This document shows positions 6,926 to 46,132 of a stretch of 54,858 nucleotides of DNA, one piece after another. The notes beneath the pieces are model-generated. The model was given only the letters and a program-made list of their open reading frames with translations. It searched no databases and was not told where the DNA came from. Numbering within the stretch: the first letter of the stretch is position 1; every line of letters begins with the position of its first letter. Location: positions 1 through 54,858 of the forward strand of contig JAJRUR010000076.1 of the NCBI GenBank assembly GCA_024277695.1, written 5' to 3'. Source of the DNA: Bacteroidota bacterium. GTDB lineage: Bacteria > Bacteroidota > Bacteroidia > Chitinophagales > Saprospiraceae. Position numbers and translations under genes: made by a program.

Positions 6926-8233
6926 ATGAGAAACTATTTTACTAAACGAATACTACAAGTACTATTTGTAGTTTTTGGACTCAGTACGAGTCTTCTTGCC
7001 ACAGATGGCTATTTCTCTTTGGGTTACGGGGCAATTATGAAGAGTTTAGGAGGGACAGGAGTCGCCTACTACTACACAGCCATTATCAACGGAAATCCTG
7101 CCGGCCTCAGTATGTTGGGCAATAGCTATGAGGTCAATCTCGCCTTATTCAGTCCGGACAGACAATACAAAGTGACTGGTGCACCTTCAGGACTTCCCGG
7201 CAGATTTGGATTAACTCCGGGTACTGTAGTGAGTGATAAGAAACTGTTTTTGATACCTAATTTTGGTGCAAACTGGATGTTAGGAGAAAACAGCGCCCTC
7301 GGCATATCCGTTTATGGCAATGGTGGGATGAATACTACATATCCCACCGCTACATTCTATGATCAAAGTTCTACAACAACAGGAGTAGATTTAGCGCAGC
7401 TTTTTTCTAATATTTCTTTCTCTCATAAATTTGGTGCGAACCATAGTATCGGAGTTTCAGCCGTTTTAGCTTATCAATATTTTGAAGCAAATGGACTCGC
7501 AGCATTTGGAGGATTTAGTATGGATGGTACCAAACTAAGCGGAAATGGCAAATCTTCATCAACAGGAATAGGGTTCAAAATCGGTTATATGGGCAATCTC
7601 ACCGATGCTTTGCACCTTGGCTTGGTCTATCAGAGCCGTGTCAGTATGAGTCCTTTTGAGGAGTATGCAGGTTTATTTGCAGAAGGAGGAGACTTTGATA
7701 TCCCTTCTTATTGGCAAGCAGGACTCAAATATGATTTGAGTGATAAGTTTGCTGTATTGTTCGATGTAAAACAAATCATGTATTCGCAAGTCAATTCTAT
7801 TGCAAATCCAATGAATCTTCGAGAAAATTCGCCGGCACTGCCCGATGATAGTCCCAATCCAAATTTTCAACCCCTCGGCTCTGTAGCTGGTTGGGGTTTT
7901 GGTTGGCAAGATATGCTTAGCTTAAAGTTTGGTCTGGAGTATATGGCGAGCGAGAGCTTTACTTTTAGAGCAGGATTTTCTGCAGGAGAGCAGCCTATAC
8001 CCACGACGGAGGTATTGTTCAATATCTTGGCACCGGGTGTGATCAATAACCATTTGGCACTCGGATTTAGCAAAAAAATGGGTGATAATAGTCTCAATTT
8101 TTCTTTCAATTATGCATTTAGAAATGCTGTGACCGGAATGAATCCGTTGGAATTTGATATGACAGGAGCATTGACACAAGAAATAGAAATCAGCATGAGC
8201 CAGTTTGATGTGGCTTTGGGCTTTACTTTCTAG
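6926..8233 (+). CDS. Outer-membrane transport protein of the OMPP1/FadL/TodX family
   Basis: 435 aa with a signal peptide. The sequence is beta-strand rich and alternating, with an N-terminal GYFSLGYGAIMKSLGGTGVA hatch-like motif and a terminal aromatic residue (GFTF). Confidence 0.7.
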   Translation: MRNYFTKRILQVLFVVFGLSTSLLATDGYFSLGYGAIMKSLGGTGVAYYYTAIINGNPAGLSMLGNSYEVNLALFSPDRQYKVTGAPSGLPGRFGLTPGTVVSDKKLFLIPNFGANWMLGENSALGISVYGNGGMNTTYPTATFYDQSSTTTGVDLAQLFSNISFSHKFGANHSIGVSAVLAYQYFEANGLAAFGGFSMDGTKLSGNGKSSSTGIGFKIGYMGNLTDALHLGLVYQSRVSMSPFEEYAGLFAEGGDFDIPSYWQAGLKYDLSDKFAVLFDVKQIMYSQVNSIANPMNLRENSPALPDDSPNPNFQPLGSVAGWGFGWQDMLSLKFGLEYMASESFTFRAGFSAGEQPIPTTEVLFNILAPGVINNHLALGFSKKMGDNSLNFSFNYAFRNAVTGMNPLEFDMTGALTQEIEISMSQFDVALGFTF

Positions 8234-21480: not shown

Positions 21481-21497
21481 ATCTTATTATTTTATCG

Positions 21498-21580
21498 TGC
21501 CGAAGGCGGGACTCGAACCCGCATGTCCTAAGGACACACGCCCCTGAAACGTGCGTGTCTACCAATTCCACCACTTCGGC
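21498..21580 (-). tRNA. tRNA-Leu (anticodon CAG), class II with a long variable arm
   Basis: The reverse complement folds: acceptor GCCGAAG/CTTCGGC, anticodon stem CACGT/GCGTG, loop TTCAGGG, a 14-nt variable arm, and T-arm GCGGG-TTCGAGT-CCCGC. Confidence 0.9.
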
Positions 21581-22028: not shown

Positions 22029-22112
22029 GCCGACGTGGTGGAATTGGTAGACACGCTGGATTCAAAATCCAGTTCTGGCAACAGAGTGGGGGTTCGATTC
22101 CCCCCGTCGGTA
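22029..22112 (+). tRNA. tRNA-Leu (anticodon CAA), class II
   Basis: Anticodon stem CTGGA/TCCAG with loop TTCAAAA, a 15-nt variable arm, T-arm GGGGG-TTCGATT-CCCCC, and acceptor GCCGACG/CGTCGGT (G1-U72 wobble). Confidence 0.9.
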
Positions 22113-22146
22113 CTACAGTTTATCGTATCTCCTCCAACCGATTTTT

Positions 22147-22673: not shown

Positions 22674-24008
22674 TCAAAATAAGCGACTGATGTCCAATCC
22701 TATGATATATACCATCAAAAGGAGTAGTATGGCCATGCCGGCCATTGTAGCGTATTGCAGTACCTTTTCGTTAGGCTTCTTACCTGTAATCATCTCTATC
22801 AAAATAAATAGAGCATGCCCCCCATCAAGTGCAGGTATCGGCAGTAGATTCATAAATCCAAGAATCATAGAAAGGAGTGCTGTTAAGTTCCAAAACTGAA
22901 TCCAATCCCAAGTACGTGGAAAAATACGCGCAATCGTAATTGGACCACCCAGACTATCTTTTGCCTTGATCTTACCTGAAAACATCTTGCCCACAGCTTT
23001 TATTTGCATCGCCAATGTCTGGACACCTTTGGATACTCCTGCCGGTAAGGACTCAAAAAATCCATATTCTTTTTTATCAAACTTCAGAAACTTGTCCGGA
23101 CCATACATACTTATTCCGATCATCCCTTCTTCAGTCGTGGTTATACTTAATGGGATAGTATCTTGCCGATTTCTCAGAACAGTCAAATCAAGCTTTTGAG
23201 ACCTTTTTCCTCTAATGGCTTTTAAAAAATCATTTTGATAGAATGTAGGAATACCATCGAGCATGATGATACGATCATCCTTCTGAATACCGGCTTTTTC
23301 CGCAGGCTTAGCTTTGATCACATCTTGCACCTGTAAAGGAAATCTGGGACCAAACAGACTCAAGCGATTAGAACTGTTTTTCGTCAATAACTTGATCCAC
23401 TTCTCATCAATCCGCACTTTGGTCAACTCGCCTTCGCGCATAACATCGATAAACCCGGCATCATTGATTACAATCTCTTTGATAAGACTACTTTGGTCTA
23501 GAGACTTTAGTGTCCGACCGCCTACATTGACGATCTTGTCTCCATCTCGCAAACCCATGTCATACCCAAGCGAGTCAACATAAATACCGTATGTCGCATT
23601 TTCAGGACTTAAATACTGCTCACCTTGTGTGTAAAACAACATGGCATATATAAAAAATCCAAGAATAAAATTGACTGTCACTCCACCCAAAATTATTATC
23701 AAGCGCTGCCAGGCAGGCTTAGACCGAAATTCCCATGGTTCCGGTTCTTTTTCTAGTTGTTCCGTATCCATACTCTCATCTACCATTCCTGCTATTTTGA
23801 CATAACCACCCAACGGCAACCAACCGACTCCATATTCTGTTTCTCCTATTTTTTTTGAAAACAAAGAAAATTTTACATCAAAAAAAAGAAAAAACTTTTC
23901 GACTCTTGTCTTGAACCATTTGGCGGGGAGAAAATGACCCAACTCGTGCAGTATGACCAGTATGGACAGACTGAGCACAAAGAGAATCACCATAGTAACT
24001 ATTTCCAT
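22674..24008 (-). CDS. rseP: RIP (site-2) zinc metalloprotease RseP
   Basis: HELGHF in TM1, PDZ-like middle region, and a C-terminal NLLPIPALDGG motif. Confidence 0.92.
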   Translation of the reverse strand: MEIVTMVILFVLSLSILVILHELGHFLPAKWFKTRVEKFFLFFDVKFSLFSKKIGETEYGVGWLPLGGYVKIAGMVDESMDTEQLEKEPEPWEFRSKPAWQRLIIILGGVTVNFILGFFIYAMLFYTQGEQYLSPENATYGIYVDSLGYDMGLRDGDKIVNVGGRTLKSLDQSSLIKEIVINDAGFIDVMREGELTKVRIDEKWIKLLTKNSSNRLSLFGPRFPLQVQDVIKAKPAEKAGIQKDDRIIMLDGIPTFYQNDFLKAIRGKRSQKLDLTVLRNRQDTIPLSITTTEEGMIGISMYGPDKFLKFDKKEYGFFESLPAGVSKGVQTLAMQIKAVGKMFSGKIKAKDSLGGPITIARIFPRTWDWIQFWNLTALLSMILGFMNLLPIPALDGGHALFILIEMITGKKPNEKVLQYATMAGMAILLLLMVYIIGLDISRLF

Positions 24009-24232: not shown

Positions 24233-24934
24233 TTGAACTACTTTTTTTCTTACTTGATTGATGACGATGAACTCCTACTGGATGGTGATGAGGCGAGGCA
24301 TTGTATCAAGGTACTTCGCCGGCAGATAGGTGATCTGATAGAGGTACTTGATGGCAAGGGACGTGTATATCACTGCCGGATCAAAGAGATTAGGCGACAC
24401 GCTGTGCTAGCAAGTATCCAATCTGCTAACTTCTATGACTTGGGTCAGGATCCTCAGCTCACTATTGCTATCTCACCCTTAAAAAATCAAAAGCGTTTTG
24501 AGTGGTTTCTCGAAAAAAGTACTGAATTGGGCATCAGCAGGATAGTACCATTGCTCTGTCACCGTACGGAAAAAACCAGAATCAAACGCGAGCGATGGTG
24601 GCAGATAATGGTTGCTGCTATGAAGCAATCCGGACGCTACTATTTGCCTATATTGAACGATCTGACGGACTATGACAAATTTATCGCGGAGACAACAAGT
24701 AATACGGGCAAATATATAGGCTATTGTGCTGCAACTTTACCAAAATTTCAAGATTACTTGCCGGGTAAATACAAGGGGATTCGAGTACTAATAGGTCCCG
24801 AAGGAGATTTTACTCCTGATGAGTACCAACGTGCACTTGAAGCCGGTTATAAGGGCGTTAGTCTGGGTCCTAACCGATATCGCACAGAAACTGCAGGTAT
24901 GCTCGTGGCTGCTTTGGTGCATAGTTGTTTGTGA
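24233..24934 (+). CDS. rsmE: 16S rRNA (uracil1498-N3)-methyltransferase RsmE
   Basis: TTG start. PUA-like N-terminus (GDEARHCIKVLR), a SPOUT C-terminus with IGPEGDFTPDE, and a terminal RTETAG. Confidence 0.85.
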   Translation: MNYFFSYLIDDDELLLDGDEARHCIKVLRRQIGDLIEVLDGKGRVYHCRIKEIRRHAVLASIQSANFYDLGQDPQLTIAISPLKNQKRFEWFLEKSTELGISRIVPLLCHRTEKTRIKRERWWQIMVAAMKQSGRYYLPILNDLTDYDKFIAETTSNTGKYIGYCAATLPKFQDYLPGKYKGIRVLIGPEGDFTPDEYQRALEAGYKGVSLGPNRYRTETAGMLVAALVHSCL

Positions 24935-25328
24935 TCTCTTTTACTCTTAATTTTCTATCCAGATCTCTTGCAGGAGCTTAAAATGTCCTGTGAGAATTCG
25001 TCTTCCGACGTATAGATATTCTGCTATCCAAGAGCATAGCTTCAGCAGTCCGGAAAATACCTGAAGAATGTTCATTTTATTAGGATGCAATATAGAGCCG
25101 CCTAATGCAGAATAAATGGATGTTAAATAGTGCCCGGAAAAAGATAAAAATTATTATATATCTAGTTATCAATAATGTATGTATTAAGAAAAAACATAAA
25201 CCTTCTGATATTTTAAATATTTTAAAATACCCCCCCTTCCCGGCCAAAACCTAATGCGCAACACGCATTTTTGCAAAAACCATAGACTTTTTCTTTACCA
25301 ATTAATACCCCAAAAACTGAGTCGTTTA

Positions 25329-25533
25329 CCCTCACGACGAGGCAGATAACCCAAGCGACTGCGCACCCCTCTTTTTTTAAGAGAGCGGGGATGCGTAGTA
25401 CTGTTGTCCTCCCCAAACCCCCTCCAAAGGGGGACAAGGTCACTACTCGCTTATGCGCTGGACAGCTTATGCGCTTGTGATCCACGATTTAGACATCTCG
25501 GATTATCCGAGGAGGCACGACGAAGCAGTCGCA
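25329..25533 (+). repeat. Copy A of a GC-rich, hairpin-rich intergenic module (core about 205 nt)
   Basis: Aligns base-for-base with 28766-29006 apart from a few indels or substitutions and one 30-nt unit. It stands out as GC-rich within AT-rich intergenic DNA. Confidence 0.9.
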
Positions 25534-25763
25534 ATCCTACGGACACGTTTCTAACCGCAAAGGACGCAAGTGGGGGAGTGGTTTACCGTCACTACGAGGA
25601 GGAAGAATGACCTAACTAGTTTTTTTAAAAAATAACAGCACTTTTGCTAACTTAAACGTTATTTAAAAAAAATTACTATATTCGTAATTGTAAATTCATT
25701 TCGTGTTTATTATTCTGATAATAAAACGAAGTGCTTATTCTTTCACCTAAATATTTTATCATT

Positions 25764-25823
25764 ATGTTTTATCAAAAAATTTTATCCCCCCCCCCCCCTG
25801 TTAATCAAATTATTATTTTGTAA
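25764..25823 (+). other. Short upstream reading frame holding the ATG and first part of a signal peptide, cut off from the 25831 ORF by a C13 tract
   Basis: ATG at 25764 reads MFYQKILSPPPPVNQIIIL then a stop at 25821. With 12 or 15 C it would read straight into the downstream ORF. Confidence 0.6.
25786..25798 (+). repeat. Homopolymeric C13 tract (candidate slipped-strand phase-variation switch)
   Basis: Counted directly: positions 25786-25798 are all C. Confidence 0.95.
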
Positions 25824-25830
25824 CATCTTC

Positions 25831-27288
25831 TTGATGCTTAGCTTTTATTCTCATTCTCAAATTTCAAATATGAGAGGAGTACACGGCTTTGTCTTTGATG
25901 ACTGCACCGCCAACCCTATAGAAGGAATTAAGGTATGTGCCTTTAATCATTCGACCAATAGAAATGATTGTACGGTCACCGATAGCGATGGAAAGTATCA
26001 TATACCTATATACACATCAGGTATTTGGATAACTGTAACGACAAATAATCAGTCTGAAAATATTTTTAATTATCCCGGATTCGCCTTCGTTAATTTTGAT
26101 ATTGTTTCTCCTGTGGACTATATGAGAGTCGTGAATTGTGCAACCGGTGAGAGCAAGTTAATATATAGCACAGACTTTAGTACGCGACCGACTATAATTT
26201 CTTGTGAAAAATGGGATTTGAAATTTGATACAGATTATAATCAATATGGTCCTTATGATTATTTTTATACAGTTAGAAGTTTTTTCCCTTGGGGAGGAAA
26301 CACCGTTCTTCGACAATGGTCAATAGGATGTGATAATCCAAATAATCCACCGGAATCAATAAATTGTGCCGGAATCGATTTGACCGAGAAACTCCGAGGG
26401 CTACCCAATGCAGTCTATCAAATTACTCTCGTAAAAGCTTGTTGCGACCGAGGAGATGGTGACTTCCCACGCCAGATTACTTCAGGCCTCGTCACGTGGC
26501 AAAACTCCGAAAGTCCTGTTGTTGATTTTAAATTTCTTGCATCTTTTGAGATCGAAGATCTCAATGGAGAAAATGATAACAATGGAATGATCGACTTTAT
26601 CTCGGACTCAAGACCCGGTCCGTTACTCGGTGATATAAGTAGTGGATTTAACGGTTCTTTTACCACAGGTAATAATATAAGTAATTATAATGTAAAAATA
26701 GAAGGAGTGAATTGTGAGGGGCAAATTGTACTTGAGACAGTTTATAACGAAAATTTCCAACCGGATGCCACGGGAAAACTGCCGGACAATTTTCTCTTTG
26801 CCGCCAATGTAAAAGATGCAAATGGGACACCATTGTTTTTGTCCAAACGTGGGGAATGTTTCAAATTTACTCTATCTGCAACCAATGCATGTGGAACGGA
26901 TTCTAAATCGAGTTATTTTAAGATTACGGAGAGTTGTATGTACTGTATGGATGCCCCTGACAAAAACCCTATAGCGCAGCAAGTACATAAGATTTTTTCA
27001 GAATCAAATAATACTGATATAGAGTCTGCGCAGGGTATATCGCTTGAGTTCCCGACTATAAATGATCGGCAAGAGGTTCCGACGAGTATATACCCCAACC
27101 CCGCAGATGATCAGCTCTACATCCGCTCATCGGTACTCCAATCTTGGGATATCTATAATAGCAGTGGTCAGCATATCCTACAAGGCACAGATAGAAATAT
27201 ACATGTCAACTCCTTACAAAAAGGTCTCTATCTGATCGATATAAAAACTGTACAGGGCAGTAAAATATTAAAATTTGTAAAACAATAA
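25831..27288 (+). CDS. Secreted protein with a CarboxypepD_reg-like N-terminal domain and a T9SS type A C-terminal sorting domain. As sequenced, the frame lacks its own ATG and signal peptide.
   Basis: The C-terminus IYPNPADDQLYIRSS...GLYLIDIKTVQGSKILKFVKQ is a type A CTD. The listed start (TTG/ATG at 25831/25834) begins with LSFYSHSQ, which looks like the end of a signal peptide rather than a start. Confidence 0.75.
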   Translation: MMLSFYSHSQISNMRGVHGFVFDDCTANPIEGIKVCAFNHSTNRNDCTVTDSDGKYHIPIYTSGIWITVTTNNQSENIFNYPGFAFVNFDIVSPVDYMRVVNCATGESKLIYSTDFSTRPTIISCEKWDLKFDTDYNQYGPYDYFYTVRSFFPWGGNTVLRQWSIGCDNPNNPPESINCAGIDLTEKLRGLPNAVYQITLVKACCDRGDGDFPRQITSGLVTWQNSESPVVDFKFLASFEIEDLNGENDNNGMIDFISDSRPGPLLGDISSGFNGSFTTGNNISNYNVKIEGVNCEGQIVLETVYNENFQPDATGKLPDNFLFAANVKDANGTPLFLSKRGECFKFTLSATNACGTDSKSSYFKITESCMYCMDAPDKNPIAQQVHKIFSESNNTDIESAQGISLEFPTINDRQEVPTSIYPNPADDQLYIRSSVLQSWDIYNSSGQHILQGTDRNIHVNSLQKGLYLIDIKTVQGSKILKFVKQ

Positions 27289-27298
27289 CTTATGTTAG

Positions 27299-27338
27299 AG
27301 AGATGGGCATAGCTAGATGCTCATCTCTGTTTTTTTTT
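27299..27338 (+). terminator. Rho-independent terminator
   Basis: A 12-bp stem (AGAGATGGGCAT / ATGCTCATCTCT with one G-U pair), a 6-nt loop, then G and a run of 9 T. Confidence 0.85.
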
Positions 27339-27363: not shown

Positions 27364-28737
27364 ATGCGCTTACTCTGCTTCATGATATGGATAAGCACTG
27401 TTGGCATGAGCTATACTTTTGGACAGAATCTCGTGCTGAATCCAAGCTTAGAAGAGTATATTTCCTGCCCTAAGGAGGATGGTGATTTTGATGGCTTAGT
27501 TAAGGATTGGCGTAGTTATGAACTTCCAGTAACATATTTGCAATGTGATTATCGTCCTGATTGGTCATTAAGGGTTGACCCTTACGACGGTGAGGCCATG
27601 TGCGCAATGAGATATTTTGACCCCGCAGGAGTTGGTGACCCGAGAAGAGGTTATGTTCATGGTACACTGAGCTCAAAGCTCCTTCGAGGTAAGAGGTACT
27701 ATATAGAATATTTTTTACACCTTCTTTTTGGCATAAATTTGCATGATCAATTTTCTGTCTATTTTACTCAAGATCCTCTGGATCAGATAATCAAAAATGA
27801 CGACATCCCCCCATATTTTGTACTTTCGGCACAGATCAACAACCAAAAAGGTATCCTTAAAGATACGATTAATTGGATCCCAATGACCGGATGTTTTGTC
27901 GCTGATGGAGGAGAGCAGTATTTTTCCATGGGCAATTTTTTGCACGACTCGATGGTTAATTTTATAAATTTCGTTCACCATTCCGGTAGTATGGAGTTTA
28001 TAGATTATGTCCGATTATTTGAGGTGGATGACCTTGTCTATACAGACACCATTTTATGTCAGAATACCGGGTTTGTACCCAATACATATGATTTGAAAGG
28101 ACTCAAAACCATGCTCGACGGTGTGGAGATCAATCGTTTTGTAGCAGATCAAGAAGGCATCTACGAGATAGAGTATGTGCTGGATGGTTGCGGGGTCATT
28201 GGTCGTAGTATGGTCGAAGTGATTCCTTGTAGAGAATGTGCACAAAACATCACCCCCTCTTATTCAATCTGCATAGACTCCATATTGTCCTTGGAAGATC
28301 TTATGGCGGATAATCTCATCCATACTGACCCGACGACGGGAGAAATAGTTACCGAATTCTCCAGAGGGCAAGTGGGCACTTATCAGCTCGATATATTTTC
28401 TGTTGATTGTTCTGTAGTAGGCACCGCTGACATAGAAGTAGTAGATTGTTCTGCCTGTAAACTCTATTTGCCAAATGTTTTTACTCCAAACGATGATGGA
28501 ATAAATGATTTTTTTAGAGCTTTTGCTGCTTGTGATGTAGTAAGCTTTGAAATGAGTATATTCAATCGTTGGGGAGATATGGTGTTCCATTCTTCCGATA
28601 TGAATCTAGGGTGGAATGGATATCACAATAACACTCCGGCGGACAATGGCGTATATGTCTATATGATTCGATATAAGCAAAATGGATACCCTTTTAAATC
28701 TATAAAAGGAGATGTCACTTTATTGTCTTGGAGGTAG
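27364..28737 (+). CDS. Secreted protein with a T9SS type B (CHU_C) C-terminal sorting domain
   Basis: 457 aa with a signal peptide. The C-terminus LYLPNVFTPNDDGINDFF...SIFNRWGDMVFHS...GWNG...GVYVYMIRY matches the type B CTD. Confidence 0.8.
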   Translation: MRLLCFMIWISTVGMSYTFGQNLVLNPSLEEYISCPKEDGDFDGLVKDWRSYELPVTYLQCDYRPDWSLRVDPYDGEAMCAMRYFDPAGVGDPRRGYVHGTLSSKLLRGKRYYIEYFLHLLFGINLHDQFSVYFTQDPLDQIIKNDDIPPYFVLSAQINNQKGILKDTINWIPMTGCFVADGGEQYFSMGNFLHDSMVNFINFVHHSGSMEFIDYVRLFEVDDLVYTDTILCQNTGFVPNTYDLKGLKTMLDGVEINRFVADQEGIYEIEYVLDGCGVIGRSMVEVIPCRECAQNITPSYSICIDSILSLEDLMADNLIHTDPTTGEIVTEFSRGQVGTYQLDIFSVDCSVVGTADIEVVDCSACKLYLPNVFTPNDDGINDFFRAFAACDVVSFEMSIFNRWGDMVFHSSDMNLGWNGYHNNTPADNGVYVYMIRYKQNGYPFKSIKGDVTLLSWR

Positions 28738-28765: not shown

Positions 28766-29006
28766 CCCTCACGACGCGAGGCAGAAAAACCAAGCGACTG
28801 CGCACCCCTCTTTTTTTAAGAGAGGGGTCGGGGGGCGTAGTACTGTTGTTCTCCCCCTAACCCCCTCCAAAGGGGTTGTCCTCCCCCTAACCCCCTCCAA
28901 AGGGGGACAAGGTCACTACTCGCTTATGCGCTGGACAGCTTATGCGCTTGTGATCCTCGATTTAGACATCTCGGATTATCCGAGGAGGCACGACGAAGCA
29001 GTCGCA
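28766..29006 (+). repeat. Copy B of the GC-rich structured intergenic module (241 nt)
   Basis: Same orientation as copy A and near-identical, but with an extra 30-nt unit. Confidence 0.9.
28846..28905 (+). repeat. Tandem duplication (2 x 30 nt) inside copy B
   Basis: TTGTTCTCCCCCTAACCCCCTCCAAAGGGG followed directly by TTGTCCTCCCCCTAACCCCCTCCAAAGGGG, with 1 mismatch. Copy A has a single unit. Confidence 0.95.
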
Positions 29007-29232
29007 CCACTCGATGGCAGCATAAAAAATGGTTCGTAATTAGAAATCAGTGGTTCATGCTTGTATTATATTTTAGAGAAATAGTCTGACTAGTAGCTGT
29101 TTTTTAAAATAATTCTGTTATCTTGCTCATCAATCATGGTAGGAAATGTAAGAGCAACATGACTTTAGGCAACGTTTTTGCTATAAAAGTAGTATTATAT
29201 TAATTACAAACACTCAAGAAACAAAAGATTAG

Positions 29233-38187: not shown

Positions 38188-41100
38188 ATGACCATACGAT
38201 TTTATGTAGTACAATTTGTTTTACTCTCTATCTTGTTTTCCTCCTGCAAACGTAATATATCCAAAAAAGACAATGCATTTTTTACACAATATGTCGCTGC
38301 ATTTACCGCCGGAGAAATTGATGTCGATGACGAAATCATTGTAGAGTTTGCTACGGAGCTCAGTCCGGCACAACAAAATACCATAGCCAACTCTGCTGTC
38401 CTCCGTTTTGAGCCGCGTATCAAAGGAAAAGCTGATTTTGTCAATAGCAGAACATTCCGATTCATACCGGAAGAACACTTACTATACGGAACACAATACA
38501 CAGCATCAGTTAATCTGAAAAAAGTTTTTCCAATGATCGAAACCGACGAATATTTTCGTTTTTCATTCGGAACCAAACACCAATCATATACCTACACCAA
38601 TGAAGGATTAAAAACCTACAACGTGGACGACCCTTCTTTACAATATATAAGTTTTGAGTTCAAAACCAATGCAGCAGCGTATCCTGATCAAATCAAAAAA
38701 ATGGTGCATCTTGAGATTGATGGTCGAAAACCAAAAATAAAATGGCAGCATTTTGACAGTGAAAATAGACACCTCTTGAGGGTGGACTCTATACGAAGAA
38801 CAGCAGAACCGCAACAACTTATCATGGATATCAATGGCAAAAGAATCGGGGCAGAATCCAAGGATCGTATCCGATATCAAATACCTAAAGCTGGCGAGTT
38901 TTTTTTGGTCAACCATCAAATGGTGCGAAAAAATAATCCATATATACGACTCGTCTTTTCAGATCCTATCGACCCAAAAATGGACCTAAAAGGTCTGGTA
39001 TATATTCCTGATATAAATGCACAATACGATGTAAAGGGCAATGAGATTCTATACTATCCATCTCAAAACTTGATAGGCGATTATGATCTGTATATCGACA
39101 AAGCTATACGCAATGTACAAAACCATAGCTTACAAAATCCTCAGACCATCAAGATACATTTTCAAAAATACCATCCCGAAATAGCTCTAAAAAGTAAAGG
39201 TGTCATACTCCCAAACTCTTCCGGATTGTTCCTGCCCATCCGTGCTGTCAATCTTTCGGCCATACGTGTAAGAGTCGTCCGCATCATGGCCAAAAATATA
39301 TCTTTTTTCTTACAGAACAACAGTTATGATGGTGATGAACAGTTAAAAAGAGTCGGCCGTATAATCTATGAAGGAATCGTTCCACTCAAACTCAAAAAAG
39401 GCCAATATCGCGGTAGTTGGAGTGACTTTACCTTAGATCTGACGCAGTTTTTTGATGCAGAACCCGGAGCTATCTATCGAATATATCTCGCTATGGATTA
39501 CAATGCCTCTACCTATCCCTGTAAGCAAGAAGAAGAACAGGCAAAATCCGTCTTTGTGGATTATTCGGAGAATGACCCATTCATAAAAAATGATCAAAAC
39601 TACTGGGACTATTTTGGCTATGACATCAATAGAAATCGCTCCGAAGCTTTCAACTGGAGAGATCGTCGAAATCCTTGCAAACCTTCATACTATCTAGACA
39701 GAAGAAATGTCATCAGCCAAAATGTTTTGGCATCCAATCTTGGCTTGATGGCCAAAACGGACGATCAGGGTTTGGCAGTCACCGTAACCGACCTAATCCA
39801 TGCCAATCCACTCTCAGGTGTAGAATTGAGCATACTCAACTTTCAAGGAGGCGAAATAGCTAAGGCCAAAACCAATGATGAAGGTATGGCGCGCATCGAA
39901 TTTAAAGGCAAACCTTATTTGCTTGTAGCATCCTTAGGACATCAGCGCGGATACTTGCGACTCGCCGAAGGCGATGTGCGCTCGCTCAGTATGTTTGAAG
40001 TCGAAGGTGTAAAAGCTACGGATGGTATTAAGCTTTTTCAATATGCCGACCGAGATGTATGGCGACCGGGAGATATGATCTACCTTCAGGCAGTTATCGA
40101 AAATAAGCAAGAACAATTACCACTCGGCCACCCAATCATTTTTGAACTTTTTGACCCTAAAGACAAGCTCGTCTATAAAGACATCGTCAGTTACAACGGT
40201 AACAGTATATATCCTTTTCACATAAAAACCAATCCAAATAGCATTACGGGAGTTTGGAGATCCGTCATCAAAATCGGTAACCAATCTTTTAGCAAAAATC
40301 TAAGTGTAGAGACCATTAAGCCCAATCGTCTCAAGATCGATATCCACCCGGATAAGCCCTTTTTTGATGCATCGGACAAAAAGCTGCGTTTTGAACTTCG
40401 CGCCGCTTGGCTACATGGAGCCAAAGTTGCGTATCTTCGCACCGACGTACGCATGAAGATGCGCCCCTTGCATACCACTTTTGATGACTACGAAAACTAT
40501 AGCTTTGACGACCGAACCCGATCTTTCAAAGACAAAGAGCATCTAATCTTTGAAGGTAAACTCGATGAGGACGGTAAGAGGAATATCTACTATCCTATCA
40601 AAATACATGCACAAGTTCCCGGAAAACTTAGTTTTGACCTCACCACCAAGGTGTACGAACCGGGTGGTAATTTTAGTATTGATCGCTTTGATATACCATA
40701 TGCACCATATGACTATTACGTCGGCATAAAAATACCTAAGGGTAATGGATGGCGAAATGCACTGATGCACAACGAAACGAATATCATGCAGATCGTTTCA
40801 TTGGATCCTTCCGGAAATAAAGCAGACGAGCGAAATCTGAAGATCGAGCTCTTCAGAATAGACAGAAGCTGGTGGTGGGACTATACCGATAGCCGATCCA
40901 ACTTCATCAACAACCAATATCTCAAAAAGATCAAGACGGAAGAAGTCACCACTAGATATGGTAAGGCTCAGTATCACATACCATCAGATATAAAATGGGG
41001 GATGTATCTGATCCGTGTAGTGGATACTAAAAGTGGACATGCCACAAGTGAGCTATTCAGAATGAGCTACAACTGGGATCAGCAAAATCAAGCCGGTACT

Positions 41101-43740
41101 CCTGATGACATCAAGGAAGGCGCCAAGATGCTTCAGATGGAACCCGACAAAGATCGATACAATATCGGTGAGCGTGTCCGCATAAATTTGCCTAAAATCA
41201 AAACCGGCCGAATCCTGGTAAGCCTGGAAAAAGGATCGACCATCTTAGAGCAGTTTTGGGCAGATGCCACTTCCAAACAATCCAAAATCGAATTTATTAC
41301 TAGGCCGGAGATGGCACCCAATGTCTATGTACATGTCAGTCTGCTCCAACCACATGACCAGACTGTCAATGACCTGCCGATTAGACTCTATGGTGTCCAA
41401 TCTATTGAAGTGAATGACCAGAGCAATCGTCTGCTGCCGGATATCAAAACTCCGGACACATGGCGACCGGAGACGACACAAAAGATCACCGTTTCCGAAT
41501 CGAATGGACATGCTATGGAATATACATTGGCTATAGTGGATGAGGGTCTGCTGGCATTGACTAACTTTCAGACTCCCGACCTTCATAAACATTTTTATGC
41601 CAAAGAGGCACTTTTAGTACAGACCTGGGATATGTATGATTGGGTTATCGGTGCACAAAGTGGCGAGCTGGCAAGCTTGCTCTCCGTTGGTGGAGATGCT
41701 TCCAAACCCAATTATGGCGCGATGAAGGCCAATCGTTTTCCTCCTATGGTACGATTTATAGGTCCATTTAAACTCAAAGCAGGTGCCCACAATGAACACA
41801 CTATCGATGTGCCCAATTATGTAGGGGCAGTCCGGGTTATGGTCGTTGCAGCTGATCAAGGCAAATACGGACGAGTTGACAAAAATATTTTAGTCAAAAA
41901 ACCTCTCATGGTGCAGGCGACCCTGCCCAGAGTATTGGGACCGGGCGAAAGGCTCAGTATGCCCATCAGTGTATTTGCACTCGAAGACAAAATCAAAGAT
42001 GTGCGCATAACGCTGAAGACCAACGCTTTGATCAATACGCTGAACAAATCCCAAACTATACATTTTGATAAAACGGGTGATCAAGTCGTTTATTTTGACT
42101 TAGATATTCCGAAGCAGATCGGAATAGCGGATATCCAAATATCCGCTGTCTCAGCGGACGAACGGGCTACAGAAAATATCCAAATTGAAGTACGTGCACC
42201 CAATCCGTTGATGAGCGAAAGACTATTCTACCGCTTAGATCCCGGAGATCAATTGGATACAGTGGTGGCGGCTATCGGGATACAAGGCACCAATGAAGCA
42301 CGCATAGAGCTGACGCACCAATTGCCTATCAACTTATCGGAGCGACTCAGTTATTTGACCGGATATCCACATGGATGTATTGAGCAAACCACCTCTTCAG
42401 TATTTCCACAGCTTTATTTGGATAAAATCATTTCCATGGATACCGGCCGGATCAGTACCATCGAAGCTAATATCAAAGCCGGAATCCGGCGCATCTATAG
42501 TATGCAACTGCCTAACGGTGGCATCGGTTATTGGCCGGGAGATAGAACAGCCTCTGCCTGGGGGACCAATTACGCAGGTCATTTTATGCTAGAAGCTAAA
42601 AATAAAGGGTATCGGCTACCCGAAGCATATCTAAATTCTTGGTCAAAATACCAGACCAAAATGGCCAATCACTGGTTGCCGAGTAGTTATACTTATCGAA
42701 ATGCAGACCTGATTCAGGCCTACCGCCTTTATACTTTGGCTTTGGCCAATAAACCGGCCATCGGTGCTATGAACCGATTGCGCAATGAGGCAAATCTGTC
42801 GGATCAAGCCAAATGGAGACTGGCGCTCAGTTATGCACTGATCGGTCAACAAGCCACGGCACTCCAATTGATCAACAGAGCTCAAGTAGATCTCCCTAAG
42901 TATCGTTCACATTCTTTTACTTTTGGGTCTGCATCTCGTGATCAAGCAATGATTTTAGAAACTTTAATGGCTTTGGATGTAGGCACAACTCAAGAATCTA
43001 CTATCCAAAAACTCATAGAAATACTGAGCAACAAACTCAACTCCAAGCACTGGTACAACACACAAGAAACTGCATATATGCTTCTATCTTTGGCAAAATA
43101 TATCCAACGGACTCAAGTAGCCGGGGTATATTCTGCTGACTTGAGTGTAGGACAGGAGACTATAAAAATCGATAAGTCTGATAGGCTTTTTGCCAAAAAA
43201 ATCCATCTAAATGCAGACGATACCCGCATAAATATCAATAATACAGGATCATCTACGATCTACTTTAATCTGATCAGACAAGGCATTCCACTACGTACAA
43301 AGGATGTAAAACTGGACGATAATTTGGAGATGAAAATCCGATATCTAGACTTAAATGGCAATACACTTGACCCCAAAAGTTTGACTCAAGGTACGGACTT
43401 TCAGATTGAAGTCAAGGTAAAGAATCCGGGATTGTTAGGTGCCTATCACAATCTTGCCTTGACGCAGATATTTCCGGGAGGATGGGAGATTCATAATGAT
43501 CGTTTGGATAACAGGACAACTACAACCGGGGCTACTTATGACTATCGGGACATTCGAGATGATCGCGTACTTATGTATTTTGGCTTACAGCCCAATGAAG
43601 AAAAGCGATTTGTGACCCGTCTCAATGCGTCGTATTCCGGAGAGTATTATATGCCCTCCATCCAAGCAGAAGCAATGTATGATCGGGATATTAGGGCTGT
43701 CAGCCCGGGTGAAATGATTCGTGTAGTCGCTGCGGATTAG
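38188..43740 (+). CDS. Bacterial alpha-2-macroglobulin family lipoprotein (YfhM/ECAM-like) with an intact thioester motif
   Basis: 1850 aa. Lipobox LFSSC and a series of MG-like domains. The thioester CIEQ within GYPHGCIEQTTSS lies at nt 42376-42387, in frame. Confidence 0.9.
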   Translation: MTIRFYVVQFVLLSILFSSCKRNISKKDNAFFTQYVAAFTAGEIDVDDEIIVEFATELSPAQQNTIANSAVLRFEPRIKGKADFVNSRTFRFIPEEHLLYGTQYTASVNLKKVFPMIETDEYFRFSFGTKHQSYTYTNEGLKTYNVDDPSLQYISFEFKTNAAAYPDQIKKMVHLEIDGRKPKIKWQHFDSENRHLLRVDSIRRTAEPQQLIMDINGKRIGAESKDRIRYQIPKAGEFFLVNHQMVRKNNPYIRLVFSDPIDPKMDLKGLVYIPDINAQYDVKGNEILYYPSQNLIGDYDLYIDKAIRNVQNHSLQNPQTIKIHFQKYHPEIALKSKGVILPNSSGLFLPIRAVNLSAIRVRVVRIMAKNISFFLQNNSYDGDEQLKRVGRIIYEGIVPLKLKKGQYRGSWSDFTLDLTQFFDAEPGAIYRIYLAMDYNASTYPCKQEEEQAKSVFVDYSENDPFIKNDQNYWDYFGYDINRNRSEAFNWRDRRNPCKPSYYLDRRNVISQNVLASNLGLMAKTDDQGLAVTVTDLIHANPLSGVELSILNFQGGEIAKAKTNDEGMARIEFKGKPYLLVASLGHQRGYLRLAEGDVRSLSMFEVEGVKATDGIKLFQYADRDVWRPGDMIYLQAVIENKQEQLPLGHPIIFELFDPKDKLVYKDIVSYNGNSIYPFHIKTNPNSITGVWRSVIKIGNQSFSKNLSVETIKPNRLKIDIHPDKPFFDASDKKLRFELRAAWLHGAKVAYLRTDVRMKMRPLHTTFDDYENYSFDDRTRSFKDKEHLIFEGKLDEDGKRNIYYPIKIHAQVPGKLSFDLTTKVYEPGGNFSIDRFDIPYAPYDYYVGIKIPKGNGWRNALMHNETNIMQIVSLDPSGNKADERNLKIELFRIDRSWWWDYTDSRSNFINNQYLKKIKTEEVTTRYGKAQYHIPSDIKWGMYLIRVVDTKSGHATSELFRMSYNWDQQNQAGTPDDIKEGAKMLQMEPDKDRYNIGERVRINLPKIKTGRILVSLEKGSTILEQFWADATSKQSKIEFITRPEMAPNVYVHVSLLQPHDQTVNDLPIRLYGVQSIEVNDQSNRLLPDIKTPDTWRPETTQKITVSESNGHAMEYTLAIVDEGLLALTNFQTPDLHKHFYAKEALLVQTWDMYDWVIGAQSGELASLLSVGGDASKPNYGAMKANRFPPMVRFIGPFKLKAGAHNEHTIDVPNYVGAVRVMVVAADQGKYGRVDKNILVKKPLMVQATLPRVLGPGERLSMPISVFALEDKIKDVRITLKTNALINTLNKSQTIHFDKTGDQVVYFDLDIPKQIGIADIQISAVSADERATENIQIEVRAPNPLMSERLFYRLDPGDQLDTVVAAIGIQGTNEARIELTHQLPINLSERLSYLTGYPHGCIEQTTSSVFPQLYLDKIISMDTGRISTIEANIKAGIRRIYSMQLPNGGIGYWPGDRTASAWGTNYAGHFMLEAKNKGYRLPEAYLNSWSKYQTKMANHWLPSSYTYRNADLIQAYRLYTLALANKPAIGAMNRLRNEANLSDQAKWRLALSYALIGQQATALQLINRAQVDLPKYRSHSFTFGSASRDQAMILETLMALDVGTTQESTIQKLIEILSNKLNSKHWYNTQETAYMLLSLAKYIQRTQVAGVYSADLSVGQETIKIDKSDRLFAKKIHLNADDTRININNTGSSTIYFNLIRQGIPLRTKDVKLDDNLEMKIRYLDLNGNTLDPKSLTQGTDFQIEVKVKNPGLLGAYHNLALTQIFPGGWEIHNDRLDNRTTTTGATYDYRDIRDDRVLMYFGLQPNEEKRFVTRLNASYSGEYYMPSIQAEAMYDRDIRAVSPGEMIRVVAAD

Positions 43741-43768
43741 AGAGATATTGTAAGCAATCTACTTTTAG

Positions 43769-46132
43769 ATGAAAATAAGAAAACGATATACCTTCATCAC
43801 GCTTTTTGGCGTTCCGCTACTCATCTGGTGGCTCTTTTTTGCATTGCCCCGCCCATTGTTCGATGCACCGTATTCGACAGTTTTAGTCGATCGTTCCGGT
43901 GCATTATTATCTGCACATATTGCTTCAGATGGTCAGTGGAGATTTCCTGCAAGGGATAGTATCCCGCCGAAGTATGTACAGGCCTTGATTTGCTTTGAAG
44001 ATCGATACTTTTATAGGCATCCGGGTGTCAATCCTTTCGCCATTGTACGAGCTATGCGGCAAAACATCAAAGAGAAGCGCTTAGTGAGTGGAGCCAGTAC
44101 GATCAGTATGCAAGTGATTCGTCTTGCAGAATCCCGCAAGGGTAGGGCACTTTGGGATAAATGCAAAGAAGTACTCAAAGCCCTACGATTAGAACTGCGC
44201 TATAGCAAGCAGGAGATATTATCTTTTCACGCTGCCCATGCACCTTTTGGTGGTAATCTGGTAGGGCTTGAGGCAGCATCTTGGAGATATTTTGGTAGAA
44301 GTGCTCACCAATTATCTTGGGCGGAAACTGCTATGCTGGCAGTACTCCCTAATGCACCAAATCTGATCCACCCGGGTAAGCATCGAAAACTATTGCTAGC
44401 CAAACGCAATCGACTGCTAGCTCGTATGGTAGATGACAATATCTTGAGCACAGAAGATTACCGATTAGCACTTTTAGAGCCACTCCCTGATCGTCCGCAT
44501 CCGATACCTTCTTTAGCACCGCATTTGTTGGACAGACTCCATCGTAGAAATACCGAAAAACAATACCGTACTAGTCTGGATCTTCCATTACAAAATGGCA
44601 CACGTAACTTGGTAAAATTGCATCACAAGCGGTTATCCCAAAACGGTATCTACAATGCTTGTGCTCTGATCATCGATATCCGGTCAAATAAGGTACTCAG
44701 TTATGTAGCAAATACCCCTACATCCGATGCGCATGCCCCAAATGTGGATATCATTATCGCCCCACGAAGTACAGGTAGTATACTCAAACCTTTTTTGTAC
44801 GCTGCTGCTATGCAGTCCGGGTTGATCTTGCCCAAAAGCTTGCTGCCTGATGTGCCTACACAGATAGCAGGATATGTGCCGTATAATTTTGATCGGGATT
44901 ATGATGGTGCAGTCCCGGCAGACGAAGCCCTTAGTAGATCCCTCAATATTCCTGCTGTAAGGTTGTTGCAGGATTATGGAGTTTCCAAATTTTATGACCG
45001 ACTTAAGGAATTGGGACTTTCAGATTTGAACTATCCGGCAGATCATTATGGACTCTCTCTCATACTTGGTGGTGCCGAAGCTAGCTTATGGGACTTGGCC
45101 ACTGCATATACTATGATGGCGAGAAAACTCCATCAATATCAAATAGTACAAGGTCAGAACAAAGTATCGCCATACGATGACGCTCCTTCCCTCCTAGAAT
45201 ATAGTGAGGGAATCCATCGATTTAGATCAGACATGCTACCGGATGCTGCCAGCGTTTGGTTGACTTTCGAAGCGATGACACAACTAAAAAAACCAAGTGG
45301 ACATCGCCTGCGTGACTTTGTGAGTGGTCAGAGAAAAATAGCTTGGAAGACAGGTACGAGTTTTGGTTTTCGAGATGCTTGGTCCATAGGAGTGACACCC
45401 GACTATTTGGTAGCTGTCTGGGTGGGTAATGCAGACGGCGAGGGACGACCGGGACTTATAGGAGTAGAAGCTGCAGCTCCTTTGATGTTTGATCTTTTTG
45501 ACCAATTAGCTTTTGATGATTATTGGTTTGAAGCTCCTTATGATCAATTGCGCGATGTTGCAGTATGTCGTCAAAGTGGATACCTAGCAACTGGTTATTG
45601 TACACTTAAGGATACCATGGCCGTACACAAATCGGGACGCAAAACATCTTCCTGTCCATATCACCAACGCGTTTCGATGGACAAAACGAATAGTTATCGT
45701 GTCAGCGCGGATTGTTATCCTCCACATCAAATGGTGTATCGATCCTGTTTTGCTTTACCACCTTCTTTTGAAGTATATTATAAAAAAAATCATCCGCAAT
45801 ATGTCGGACTACCGGAGTATGACCCAAATTGTAGTCCCGGTGACGCTCCACAAATAGAACTCATTTATCCACCTAAAGGAGCTCGAATTTATCTCCCGCG
45901 AAATTTGGATGGTAGTGAAGGCAAATTTGTATTCGAAGCGGCGCACCAAAGCAGCTCTACCAAAATCTACTGGCACTTGGATGAAGAATATATCGGTAGT
46001 ACCCAAGGTGCTCACCAACTCCAATACCTACCAAAATCCGGAGCGCATATCCTCACTTTAATCGATCAAAACGGTCAAGAACTCCGACAAGCATTTTTTG
46101 TCGAGCGGAATGATACCGGCTCCGGCCTCTAG
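43769..46132 (+). CDS. pbpC: Penicillin-binding protein 1C (bifunctional glycosyltransferase/transpeptidase)
   Basis: GT51 motifs EDRYFYRHPGVNP and RLELRYSKQEIL, the transpeptidase SxxK (STGSILKPF), and a C-terminal PBP1C-specific domain. It lies 28 nt downstream of the A2M gene. Confidence 0.9.
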   Translation: MKIRKRYTFITLFGVPLLIWWLFFALPRPLFDAPYSTVLVDRSGALLSAHIASDGQWRFPARDSIPPKYVQALICFEDRYFYRHPGVNPFAIVRAMRQNIKEKRLVSGASTISMQVIRLAESRKGRALWDKCKEVLKALRLELRYSKQEILSFHAAHAPFGGNLVGLEAASWRYFGRSAHQLSWAETAMLAVLPNAPNLIHPGKHRKLLLAKRNRLLARMVDDNILSTEDYRLALLEPLPDRPHPIPSLAPHLLDRLHRRNTEKQYRTSLDLPLQNGTRNLVKLHHKRLSQNGIYNACALIIDIRSNKVLSYVANTPTSDAHAPNVDIIIAPRSTGSILKPFLYAAAMQSGLILPKSLLPDVPTQIAGYVPYNFDRDYDGAVPADEALSRSLNIPAVRLLQDYGVSKFYDRLKELGLSDLNYPADHYGLSLILGGAEASLWDLATAYTMMARKLHQYQIVQGQNKVSPYDDAPSLLEYSEGIHRFRSDMLPDAASVWLTFEAMTQLKKPSGHRLRDFVSGQRKIAWKTGTSFGFRDAWSIGVTPDYLVAVWVGNADGEGRPGLIGVEAAAPLMFDLFDQLAFDDYWFEAPYDQLRDVAVCRQSGYLATGYCTLKDTMAVHKSGRKTSSCPYHQRVSMDKTNSYRVSADCYPPHQMVYRSCFALPPSFEVYYKKNHPQYVGLPEYDPNCSPGDAPQIELIYPPKGARIYLPRNLDGSEGKFVFEAAHQSSSTKIYWHLDEEYIGSTQGAHQLQYLPKSGAHILTLIDQNGQELRQAFFVERNDTGSGL

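Follow-up and report, generated by a model that had tools for sequence, protein, structure and literature searches.

The 54,858-nucleotide stretch analysed here (the window) is contig JAJRUR010000076.1 of the GenBank assembly GCA_024277695.1, from a Bacteroidota bacterium. Near its middle lies a 485-codon open reading frame (ORF) for a predicted cargo protein of the type IX secretion system (T9SS), and just ahead of it stands an ATG start codon followed by a run of 13 cytosines (C13). The start codon and the ORF are in different reading frames, and the cytosine run sits at the break between them. The features of this locus are as follows.

25764-25785, + strand: start codon (ATG 25764-25766) and onwards, encoding MFYQKIL plus the first base of a Ser codon; n-region of a putative signal peptide, set in an AT-rich leader.
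25786-25798, + strand: C13 homopolymer with a T on each side, the proposed hypermutable tract; C12 or C15 would be in frame (ON), C13 or C14 out of frame (OFF).
25799-25823, + strand: out-of-frame tail of the ATG frame, VNQIIIL followed by TAA (25821-25823); the product is a 19-residue peptide.
25798-25857, + strand: rest of the putative signal peptide in the ORF frame (ATG frame +1), LLIKLLFCNIFLMLSFYSHS, comprising the hydrophobic core and c-region.
25831-27288, + strand: the 485-codon ORF, mature T9SS type-A cargo; its listed start is the first TTG after a stop, and its own stop is TAA 27286-27288.
25879-26037 (residues 17-69), + strand: CarboxypepD_reg-like domain, a library domain match.
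27088-27285 (residues 420-485), + strand: C-terminal T9SS type-A sorting domain (Por_Secre_tail PF18962 / TIGR04183).

Read directly, the ATG frame encodes MFYQKILSPPPPVNQIIIL and stops at TAA 25821-25823; the tract follows codon 7, and the frame runs on as ...SPPPPVNQIIIL before this stop. The ORF frame contains no ATG, GTG or TTG upstream of 25831, and the public gene call (P0001) begins further in, at MRGVH (25870), without a signal peptide. When the tract was replaced in silico by lengths from C10 to C16, only C12 and C15 joined the ATG to the ORF, yielding products of 507 and 508 residues, respectively (MFYQKILSPPP(P)LLIKLLFCNIFLMLSFYSHSQISN...). The remaining lengths (C10, C11, C13, C14 and C16) all terminated, giving peptides of 12-20 residues. 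A preliminary description of this DNA had placed the ATG, the tract and the stop at 25764, 25786-25798 and 25821, had found no convincing start for the 485-residue ORF, and had proposed that C12 or C15 would restore the frame to the whole ORF; direct reading confirmed every coordinate, the upstream frame and the public call agree on the missing start, and the frame arithmetic is correct. Tandem Repeats Finder (TRF) also reported three imperfect copies of a 13-nt unit, AAATATTTTATCA, at 25749-25786, spanning the start codon up to the poly-C (72% matches).

C13 is the only run of C or G longer than seven in the 54,858 bases (41.7% G+C), the next longest being a single C7. Counts of G/C runs drop about 5-fold with each added base, which gives an expectation of about 9e-5 runs of at least 13 in the window. 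As a wider background we reused 80 GTDB loci originally gathered by their neighbouring RseP gene, the full set totalling 81 other Bacteroidota loci (1.32 Mb). These contained no G/C run of nine or more (the longest was eight), and tetranucleotide repeats never reached five copies. Nor is the tract accounted for by coding needs: CCC makes up only 25.5% of the Pro codons in the window, and PPP occurs in none of its 34 long ORFs. No other simple-sequence repeat (SSR) marking a further switch was found in the window. The C13 run is a genuine SSR, not a chance feature. Its length falls within the hypermutable range of contingency loci (G/C homopolymers of roughly 8 or more), and it lies inside a reading frame with a unit that is not a multiple of three.

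A run of this kind could also be miscounted. If the true tract were fixed in frame (C12 or C15), the frameshift would be a homopolymer-length error in the contig, an explanation we consider unlikely. Every sequencing platform makes errors in long G/C homopolymers, the contig is a singleton, and the authors who described the variable poly-C of the Gardnerella nanH3 gene warn that sequencing and assembly struggle with such tracts (bioRxiv 10.1101/2020.09.16.300947). However, the A8 runs at 23880, 45782, 50239 and 50702 all sit within long ORFs that read through them intact, and the C13 tract causes the only apparent frameshift in 54.9 kb. A true C12 would moreover still be a hypermutable repeat, so a miscount would touch the captured state and not the nature of the element. 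Further evidence on this point comes from homologues (see below).

The protein encoded downstream of the tract is recognisable as T9SS cargo, as the preliminary description had proposed. Its sorting domain scores above the cut-offs of both libraries (41.7 bits against 27 for PF18962; 41.6 bits against 23 for TIGR04183), as expected of type-A cargo, and sorting domains of type A or type B occur in four further proteins of the window. No core T9SS component turned up in the window ORFs scanned, although no search aimed at the T9SS machinery was made. An AlphaFold model built on a 17-sequence family alignment is all beta, with beta-sandwich domains strung in a chain (mean pLDDT, the predicted local distance difference test score, of 76). 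Foldseek comparison of the model with the PDB returned only generic immunoglobulin, fibronectin type III (Ig/FN3) and macroglobulin-domain matches (template modelling (TM) score <=0.27), offering no functional clue. Judged by the model, the product resembles a surface stalk or adhesin, and no enzyme domain can be recognised in it.

T9SS cargo first crosses the inner membrane through the Sec pathway and so needs a signal peptide. In the window a putative one is present but cut off from its start codon. The repaired N-terminus, MFYQKILSPPPLLIKLLFCNIFLMLSFYSHS|Q, has lysines in the n-region followed by a hydrophobic core, and the 11-residue Kyte-Doolittle mean peaks at 2.0-2.3 over LLIKLLFCNIFLMLSF. 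The predicted cleavage site is SHS|Q, before the CAA codon at 25858-25860, and the ORF starts only six to nine residues ahead of it. Five full-length homologues (P0020, P0024, P0025, P0028 and P0147) carry an in-frame signal peptide directly before a conserved xSGxVxDxC motif; in P0028, for instance, the junction reads ...CLVTNSQ|TISGHVYDAC, against ...SFYSHSQ|ISNMRGVHGFVFDDC in the window. Since these homologues have a complete signal peptide before the same motif, the window ORF truly lacks the front of its own in frame. Hydropathy and homologue comparison thus agree that the signal peptide is out of frame as sequenced, and that it becomes in frame and homologue-like after the loss of one C or the gain of two.

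All four of the other clear signal-peptidase-I-type signal peptides in the window (18349, 20824(-), 27364 and 29233) end just before Gln (AYT|Q, ILA|Q, TFG|Q and LRA|Q), and the repaired peptide does likewise. An N-terminal Gln that cyclises to pyroglutamate is a Bacteroidota habit, which fits signal peptides ending before Q. Both this pattern and the complete homologues favour the earlier suggestion that the first residues of the ORF (LSFYSHSQ) are the tail of a signal peptide.

We searched for relatives of the gene in several ways. A word-indexed search of 5.8 billion proteins for close relatives returned only the window's own product, a contig look-up with the exact product found it on no record elsewhere, and a metagenome scan with the protein matched an unrelated sorting domain only. 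An exhaustive HMMER search revealed a remote family of 29 proteins at E <=1e-10, typically 450-530 residues long and 25-40% identical. Its members have one architecture in common, and a cysteine-rich motif (CFKxTVTVTNxCG...SYFTITExCxFCL) is conserved ahead of the sorting domain. Searching the word-indexed database with a profile of the family alignment recovered three family members only and added nothing. As for the organism, the window's GroEL is 80-83% identical to proteins from metagenome-assembled genomes (MAGs) of Saprospiraceae, Lewinellaceae and Phaeodactylibacter, and the best GTDB representative match to its RseP is 51% identical (a Lewinellaceae MAG). The source appears from these proteins to be an uncultured member of a Saprospiraceae/Lewinellaceae-like group without a close sequenced relative. 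A synteny comparison through the neighbouring RseP in GTDB genomes was dropped, as the best match was 51% and no close genome was available.

We then read the DNA of family lineages whose called products looked truncated at the N-terminus, seven lineages including the window. In all seven, an ATG with a short n-region stands in a different frame from the signal-peptide core, and the break is occupied by a repeat or short homopolymer. The six other lineages are:

L086 (=L087), JGI (Joint Genome Institute) 3300014202: C13 after ATG plus 8 codons, offset by +1 as in the window; with C12 the product would begin MKNATFYFAPPPRLIGRLFFNPRTLIALIVLISGSLATLNA|Q.
L083 and L088-L092, six JGI metagenomes: (AGAC)n after ATG AAA AAT TTT, with n = 10, 10, 10, 5, 11 and 11; none of these is in frame.
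L093-L095, three Logan assemblies: C10 after ATG plus 21 codons; in frame, with a 574-residue product called from the ATG. L096 and L097, the NCBI Saprospiraceae MAG GCA_041392825.1 and another Logan assembly: C9 at the same site as this C10; out of frame, with a 486-residue call lacking a signal peptide.
L082, ENA ERZ1767481: a 19-nt unit in two copies after the ATG; a third copy would restore the frame, and GTG 2956, which is in frame, offers an alternative start.
L084/L085, Logan DRR438484/89: C5; adding one C would restore the frame, and the contig is reported in 11 samples.
L098, Logan ERR9669565: C7 plus T7, two shifts.

The last two lineages look like locked or decayed versions. In the AGAC lineage, 6, 9 or 12 copies would be in frame (MKNFRQTDRQTD...KPLLILIVLLVLLGFTPKNTFA|A). 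Its flanks are identical among the six metagenomes, and the copy number differs (5, 10 or 11). Likewise C9 and C10 occur at one site, each reproduced in more than one assembly, and the offset of C9 is opposite to that of C13. Repeat-length polymorphism with constant flanks is therefore seen in remote family members, both as AGAC x5/x10/x11 and as C9 versus C10. A repeat at the signal-peptide n-region is a family trait: its form varies by lineage and its length by assembly, and both in-frame and out-of-frame alleles exist. The preliminary description had suggested comparing tract length in related strains; carried out in the remote family, this comparison found SSRs at the same place with differing lengths.

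These observations bear on the miscount explanation. Differences in AGAC copy number cannot be homopolymer errors. C9 and C10 each recur in more than one assembly, and an independent assembly of a remote homologue (L086) also has C13. L086 and L087 are identical over 6.4 kb and so count as a single observation of this length.

The homology between the window and L086 extends through the leader, start and tract (TTTCACC..AATTATG..C13..TTAATC..TTATT; window 25740-25830 and L086 2835-2930). The two proteins are only about 25% identical overall (39% over the best-matching stretch), yet both loci have C13 and the same +1 offset. They differ in that an in-frame TTG immediately precedes the tract in L086 but not in the window.

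Two side observations concern repeats elsewhere in these loci. In the AGAC lineage, a second variable repeat, (ATATGGAA)n, is found some 280-340 nt ahead of the ATG in 8, 5, 5 and 7 copies (L083 891-954, L089 847, L090 775 and L092 879), and may be a promoter-region SSR acting together with the coding-region AGAC repeat. L086 also has a G9 run (C9 on the minus strand) at 7451-7459 (6978-6986 in L087), within a partial minus-strand gene and some 17 codons ahead of that gene's stop, and the L086 genome may contain further G/C tracts.

We interpret the C13 locus as a slipped-strand contingency locus captured in its OFF (3n+1) state, with a probability of roughly 75%. Repeats of this type are known to mispair by strand slippage when DNA is replicated, which here would add or remove cytosines. 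At C12 or C15 the ATG at 25764 would be in frame and give a 507- or 508-residue precursor, MFYQKILSPPP(P)LLIKLLFCNIFLMLSFYSHS|Q..., which would be exported by Sec and then secreted or anchored at the surface by T9SS through the C-terminal sorting domain. At C13 or C14 the ATG frame would end after 19 or 13 codons, respectively. Any product from the internal TTG or ATG at 25831/25834 would lack the hydrophobic core and stay in the cytoplasm, leaving the gene functionally OFF. The slipped-strand ON/OFF architecture, with OFF as the captured state, was already the proposal of the preliminary description, and the family SSRs of differing length at the same place support it. By analogy with other such loci, we infer that the tract would switch reversibly at a high rate, with expression following the frame. 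The selective agent is presumably something that recognises the surface protein, such as phages or grazers, or a trade-off in surface attachment.

Several points weigh against this interpretation. The collections searched hold no second copy of the gene, and the 13 could be a miscount of 12. The inspected lineages were picked for their truncated-looking products, which introduces an ascertainment bias, and in several other family members the signal peptide is ordinary and the protein sequence gives no hint of a repeat. The six AGAC alleles and the two C13 alleles are OFF without exception, and only the C9/C10 lineage has yielded an in-frame allele. The occurrence of exactly C13, with the same +1 offset, in two diverged homologues is also somewhat odd for a freely fluctuating tract. 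Finally, some of the apparent OFF states may be leaky or use alternative starts, such as the TTG before the L086 tract, the GTG at 2956 in L082, and a TTG or GTG within the hydrophobic core of L083.

The shared C13 raises another explanation, namely that the 3n+1 length is itself maintained as functional. A set, low protein level would then result from +1 ribosomal frameshifting on CCC-C, or from RNA-polymerase slippage producing C12 transcripts. At CCC-C, tRNA-Pro is classically prone to +1 shifts; ribosomes stall on successive prolines, and transcription slips on long homopolymers. Since the ORF lies in the ATG frame +1, one base skipped anywhere in the four CCC codons would give the correct protein; the identical length, offset and conserved flanks of the window and L086 are also in keeping with recoding. 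However, the C9/C10 lineage has an in-frame allele at the DNA level and an out-of-frame allele with the opposite offset, and the AGAC and 19-nt repeats of other lineages are not frameshift sites. Nor was a known stimulatory element found; no Rfam family matched at its gathering score, with one sub-threshold, chance-level hit in an upstream repeat (described below). The in-frame C10, the opposite-offset C9 and the repeats that are not homopolymers point to change in the DNA itself as the main mode. We think it improbable that recoding accounts for the locus by itself. Leaky decoding is compatible with a contingency locus and may just add to it: leaky +1 decoding or transcriptional slippage may contribute a low basal level in the 3n+1 state.

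Could the gene instead be ON as sequenced? A CTG at 25798-25800, immediately after the tract, is in the ORF frame, and initiation there would produce MLIKLLFCNIFLMLSFYSHS|Q, a complete short signal peptide with a Lys in its n-region and a full hydrophobic core. The in-frame TTG directly 5' of the L086 tract might be taken as a parallel. However, bacteria use CTG as a start codon only very rarely and weakly, and there would be no explanation for the AATTATG that the window and L086 both conserve seven to eight codons further upstream. We give initiation at this CTG almost no credence.

A frameshifted gene may also simply be a decaying pseudogene that is no longer used. The gene is an orphan at close range, and two family members look locked or decayed (C5 in L084/85; C7 and T7, with two shifts, in L098). 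In the window, though, 485 stop-free codons follow the break, both domains are intact, and the all-beta model is confident. Moreover, a 13-base homopolymer neither arises nor persists by neutral decay, and the start region and tract flanks are kept in L086. Decay therefore strikes us as very unlikely, and a contingency locus remains our preferred explanation.

The genes around the ORF offer some insight into how far the switch might reach. The features concerned are:

27299-27338, + strand: terminator-like hairpin with a 12-bp stem followed by T9, 11 nt past the stop codon of the ORF (a pattern match only).
27364-28737, + strand: partner gene; its 457-residue product has a signal peptide and carries a sorting domain of T9SS type B (CHU_C / TIGR04131).
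All T9SS cargo genes of the window besides the switched ORF, with sorting domains: 18349, M14 carboxypeptidase; 12329(-), 27364 and 29233, CHU_C proteins.

The hairpin suggests that the switched gene is its own transcription unit. As hairpin and T9 lie between the two genes, the switch probably controls only the first. The pairing itself recurs: in every locus that extends far enough (the L082-L097 set), a CHU_C gene follows the family homologue. These partners are homologous over their full length, not just in the sorting domain, and share an N-terminal QNLVxNPSFExYxxCP motif, and the genes around the pair differ between loci. From sequence comparison, the type-A cargo gene and its type-B CHU_C partner appear to be a conserved two-gene module.

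The preliminary description had also raised the idea that other T9SS cargo genes might carry poly-C or poly-G tracts. This did not hold in the window, where none of the other cargo genes (18349, 12329(-), 27364 and 29233) has one. An invertible promoter finds no support either, as no inverted-repeat pair brackets the upstream region (24934-25764). The only such pair nearby, I10 (25845-25869 / 26216-26240), falls within the ORF. A scan for sigma-70-type promoters gave hits no better than shuffled sequences (Bacteroidota promoters differ from this type), and a search by eye for the TAnnTTTG -7 box found only TATATTCG, with one mismatch, about 80 nt upstream; we do not rely on it.

Upstream of the locus is one of two + strand copies (25338-25590 and 28777-29040) of an intergenic repeat of about 230-260 nt, which is GC-rich (52-56% against ~30% in its flanks). 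Each copy precedes a T9SS cargo gene, the switched ORF in one case and a 1611-residue CHU_C ORF at 29233 in the other. The cores of the two copies (25411-25533 and 28884-29006) are 98% identical, with an RNA fold z-score of -3.0. Nothing in Rfam matched the repeat at the gathering score; the whalefall-1 family scored 19 bits (cut-off 37), which is chance level. The other loci compared contain no convincing copy, with one short 34-nt match in L038. The second copy includes a 30-nt tandem duplication, GTTGTCCTCCCCCTAACCCCCTCCAAAGGG x2 (28845-28905), that is missing from the first. The repeat could be a miniature inverted-repeat transposable element (MITE), a small RNA (sRNA), or a shared leader or regulatory element.

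Two further observations concern the rest of the window. Positions 38188-46132 encode a bacterial alpha-2-macroglobulin (A2M; 1850 residues, with MG, bait-region and A2M domains) and, directly after it, a PBP1C-type penicillin-binding protein (Transgly, Transpeptidase and BiPBP_C domains), which we take to be the known, ordinary A2M-PbpC pairing. Two divergent tRNA-Leu genes, CAG at 21497-21580 (-) and CAA at 22029-22113 (+), are separated by 448 nt; across 36 nt they make up an 89% inverted repeat.

Textbook examples of SSR contingency loci come from Neisseria, Haemophilus, Campylobacter, Helicobacter and the mycoplasmas. In the Neisseria opa genes (CTCTT repeats), in pilC (poly-G) and in the tetranucleotide-repeat genes of Haemophilus influenzae, a non-triplet repeat just after the start codon sets the frame through its copy number. 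The present family resembles these loci in that surface-protein genes are involved and repeat types differ across a gene family; the AGAC-repeat homologues (the L083 cluster) are close in form to a Haemophilus-type tetranucleotide locus. Neisseria and Haemophilus are Proteobacteria restricted to their hosts; each genome has dozens of these loci, and their switching rates have been measured. Here, by contrast, there is one locus in 54.9 kb, and the organisms are known only from metagenomes and MAGs.

The closest published analogue we found is the nanH3 sialidase gene of Gardnerella piotii, where a poly-C of 8-14 beside the signal-peptide coding region varies within colonies (Kurukulasuriya, Patterson & Hill, bioRxiv 10.1101/2020.09.16.300947). 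Nine or 12 cytosines are in frame there and other lengths truncate the product, after which annotations lack the signal peptide (bioRxiv 10.1101/2020.09.16.300947). The window locus is alike in having a cytosine homopolymer at the 5' end of a gene for a secreted or surface protein, adjoining the signal-peptide region, and in its annotation, P0001 from MRGVH, which has no signal peptide. There are also differences. Gardnerella is a Gram-positive, host-associated actinobacterium and nanH3 a membrane- or wall-tethered enzyme, whereas the window comes from an uncultured Saprospiraceae/Lewinellaceae-like bacterium and encodes a predicted T9SS-exported protein with no recognisable enzyme domain. The nanH3 tract lies just after the signal peptide; in the window it is inside the n-region, so that the OFF state splits the start codon from the hydrophobic core. 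Variation within colonies has been demonstrated for nanH3, whereas the window tract is known from one assembled sequence.

Within the phylum itself, a 2025 review describes phase variation in Bacteroides as DNA inversion, with invertases flipping promoters flanked by inverted repeats, and with shufflons (PMC11868660). The proposed outcome here is the same, the stochastic ON/OFF expression of surface structures, but the switch would be a repeat in the coding region. Our literature search found no paper linking T9SS cargo to repeat-mediated phase variation. We rate the mechanism as classical, and the taxon, the secretion system and the family-wide recurrence as new.

Taking the family as a whole, we lean slightly towards a broader view, in which the two-gene T9SS module is a contingency-locus family in uncultured Saprospiraceae/Lewinellaceae-like Bacteroidota. 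Poly-C, AGAC and the 19-nt unit would have been recruited repeatedly at the signal-peptide n-region under strong fluctuating selection, for instance on a phage receptor. The C13 state shared with L086 could then be a leaky third level, reached through +1 slippage on CCC-C.

If the C13 tract is a switch, there are practical consequences for the study of such bacteria. Gene callers would systematically truncate these genes and drop the signal peptide, as in the window and at least five homologue clusters, so that secretome predictions from MAGs would miss them. Repeat length could, in turn, mark the state of a strain or population in metagenomes. More broadly, SSR phase variation, usually tied to host-adapted pathogens and commensals, would extend to the T9SS cargo of Bacteroidota known from metagenomes and MAGs, and a family of T9SS surface proteins in Saprospiraceae-like bacteria would be under stochastic ON/OFF control. 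The protein and its conserved partner would then be a probable target of phages, predators or attachment trade-offs, and hence a candidate for receptor studies.

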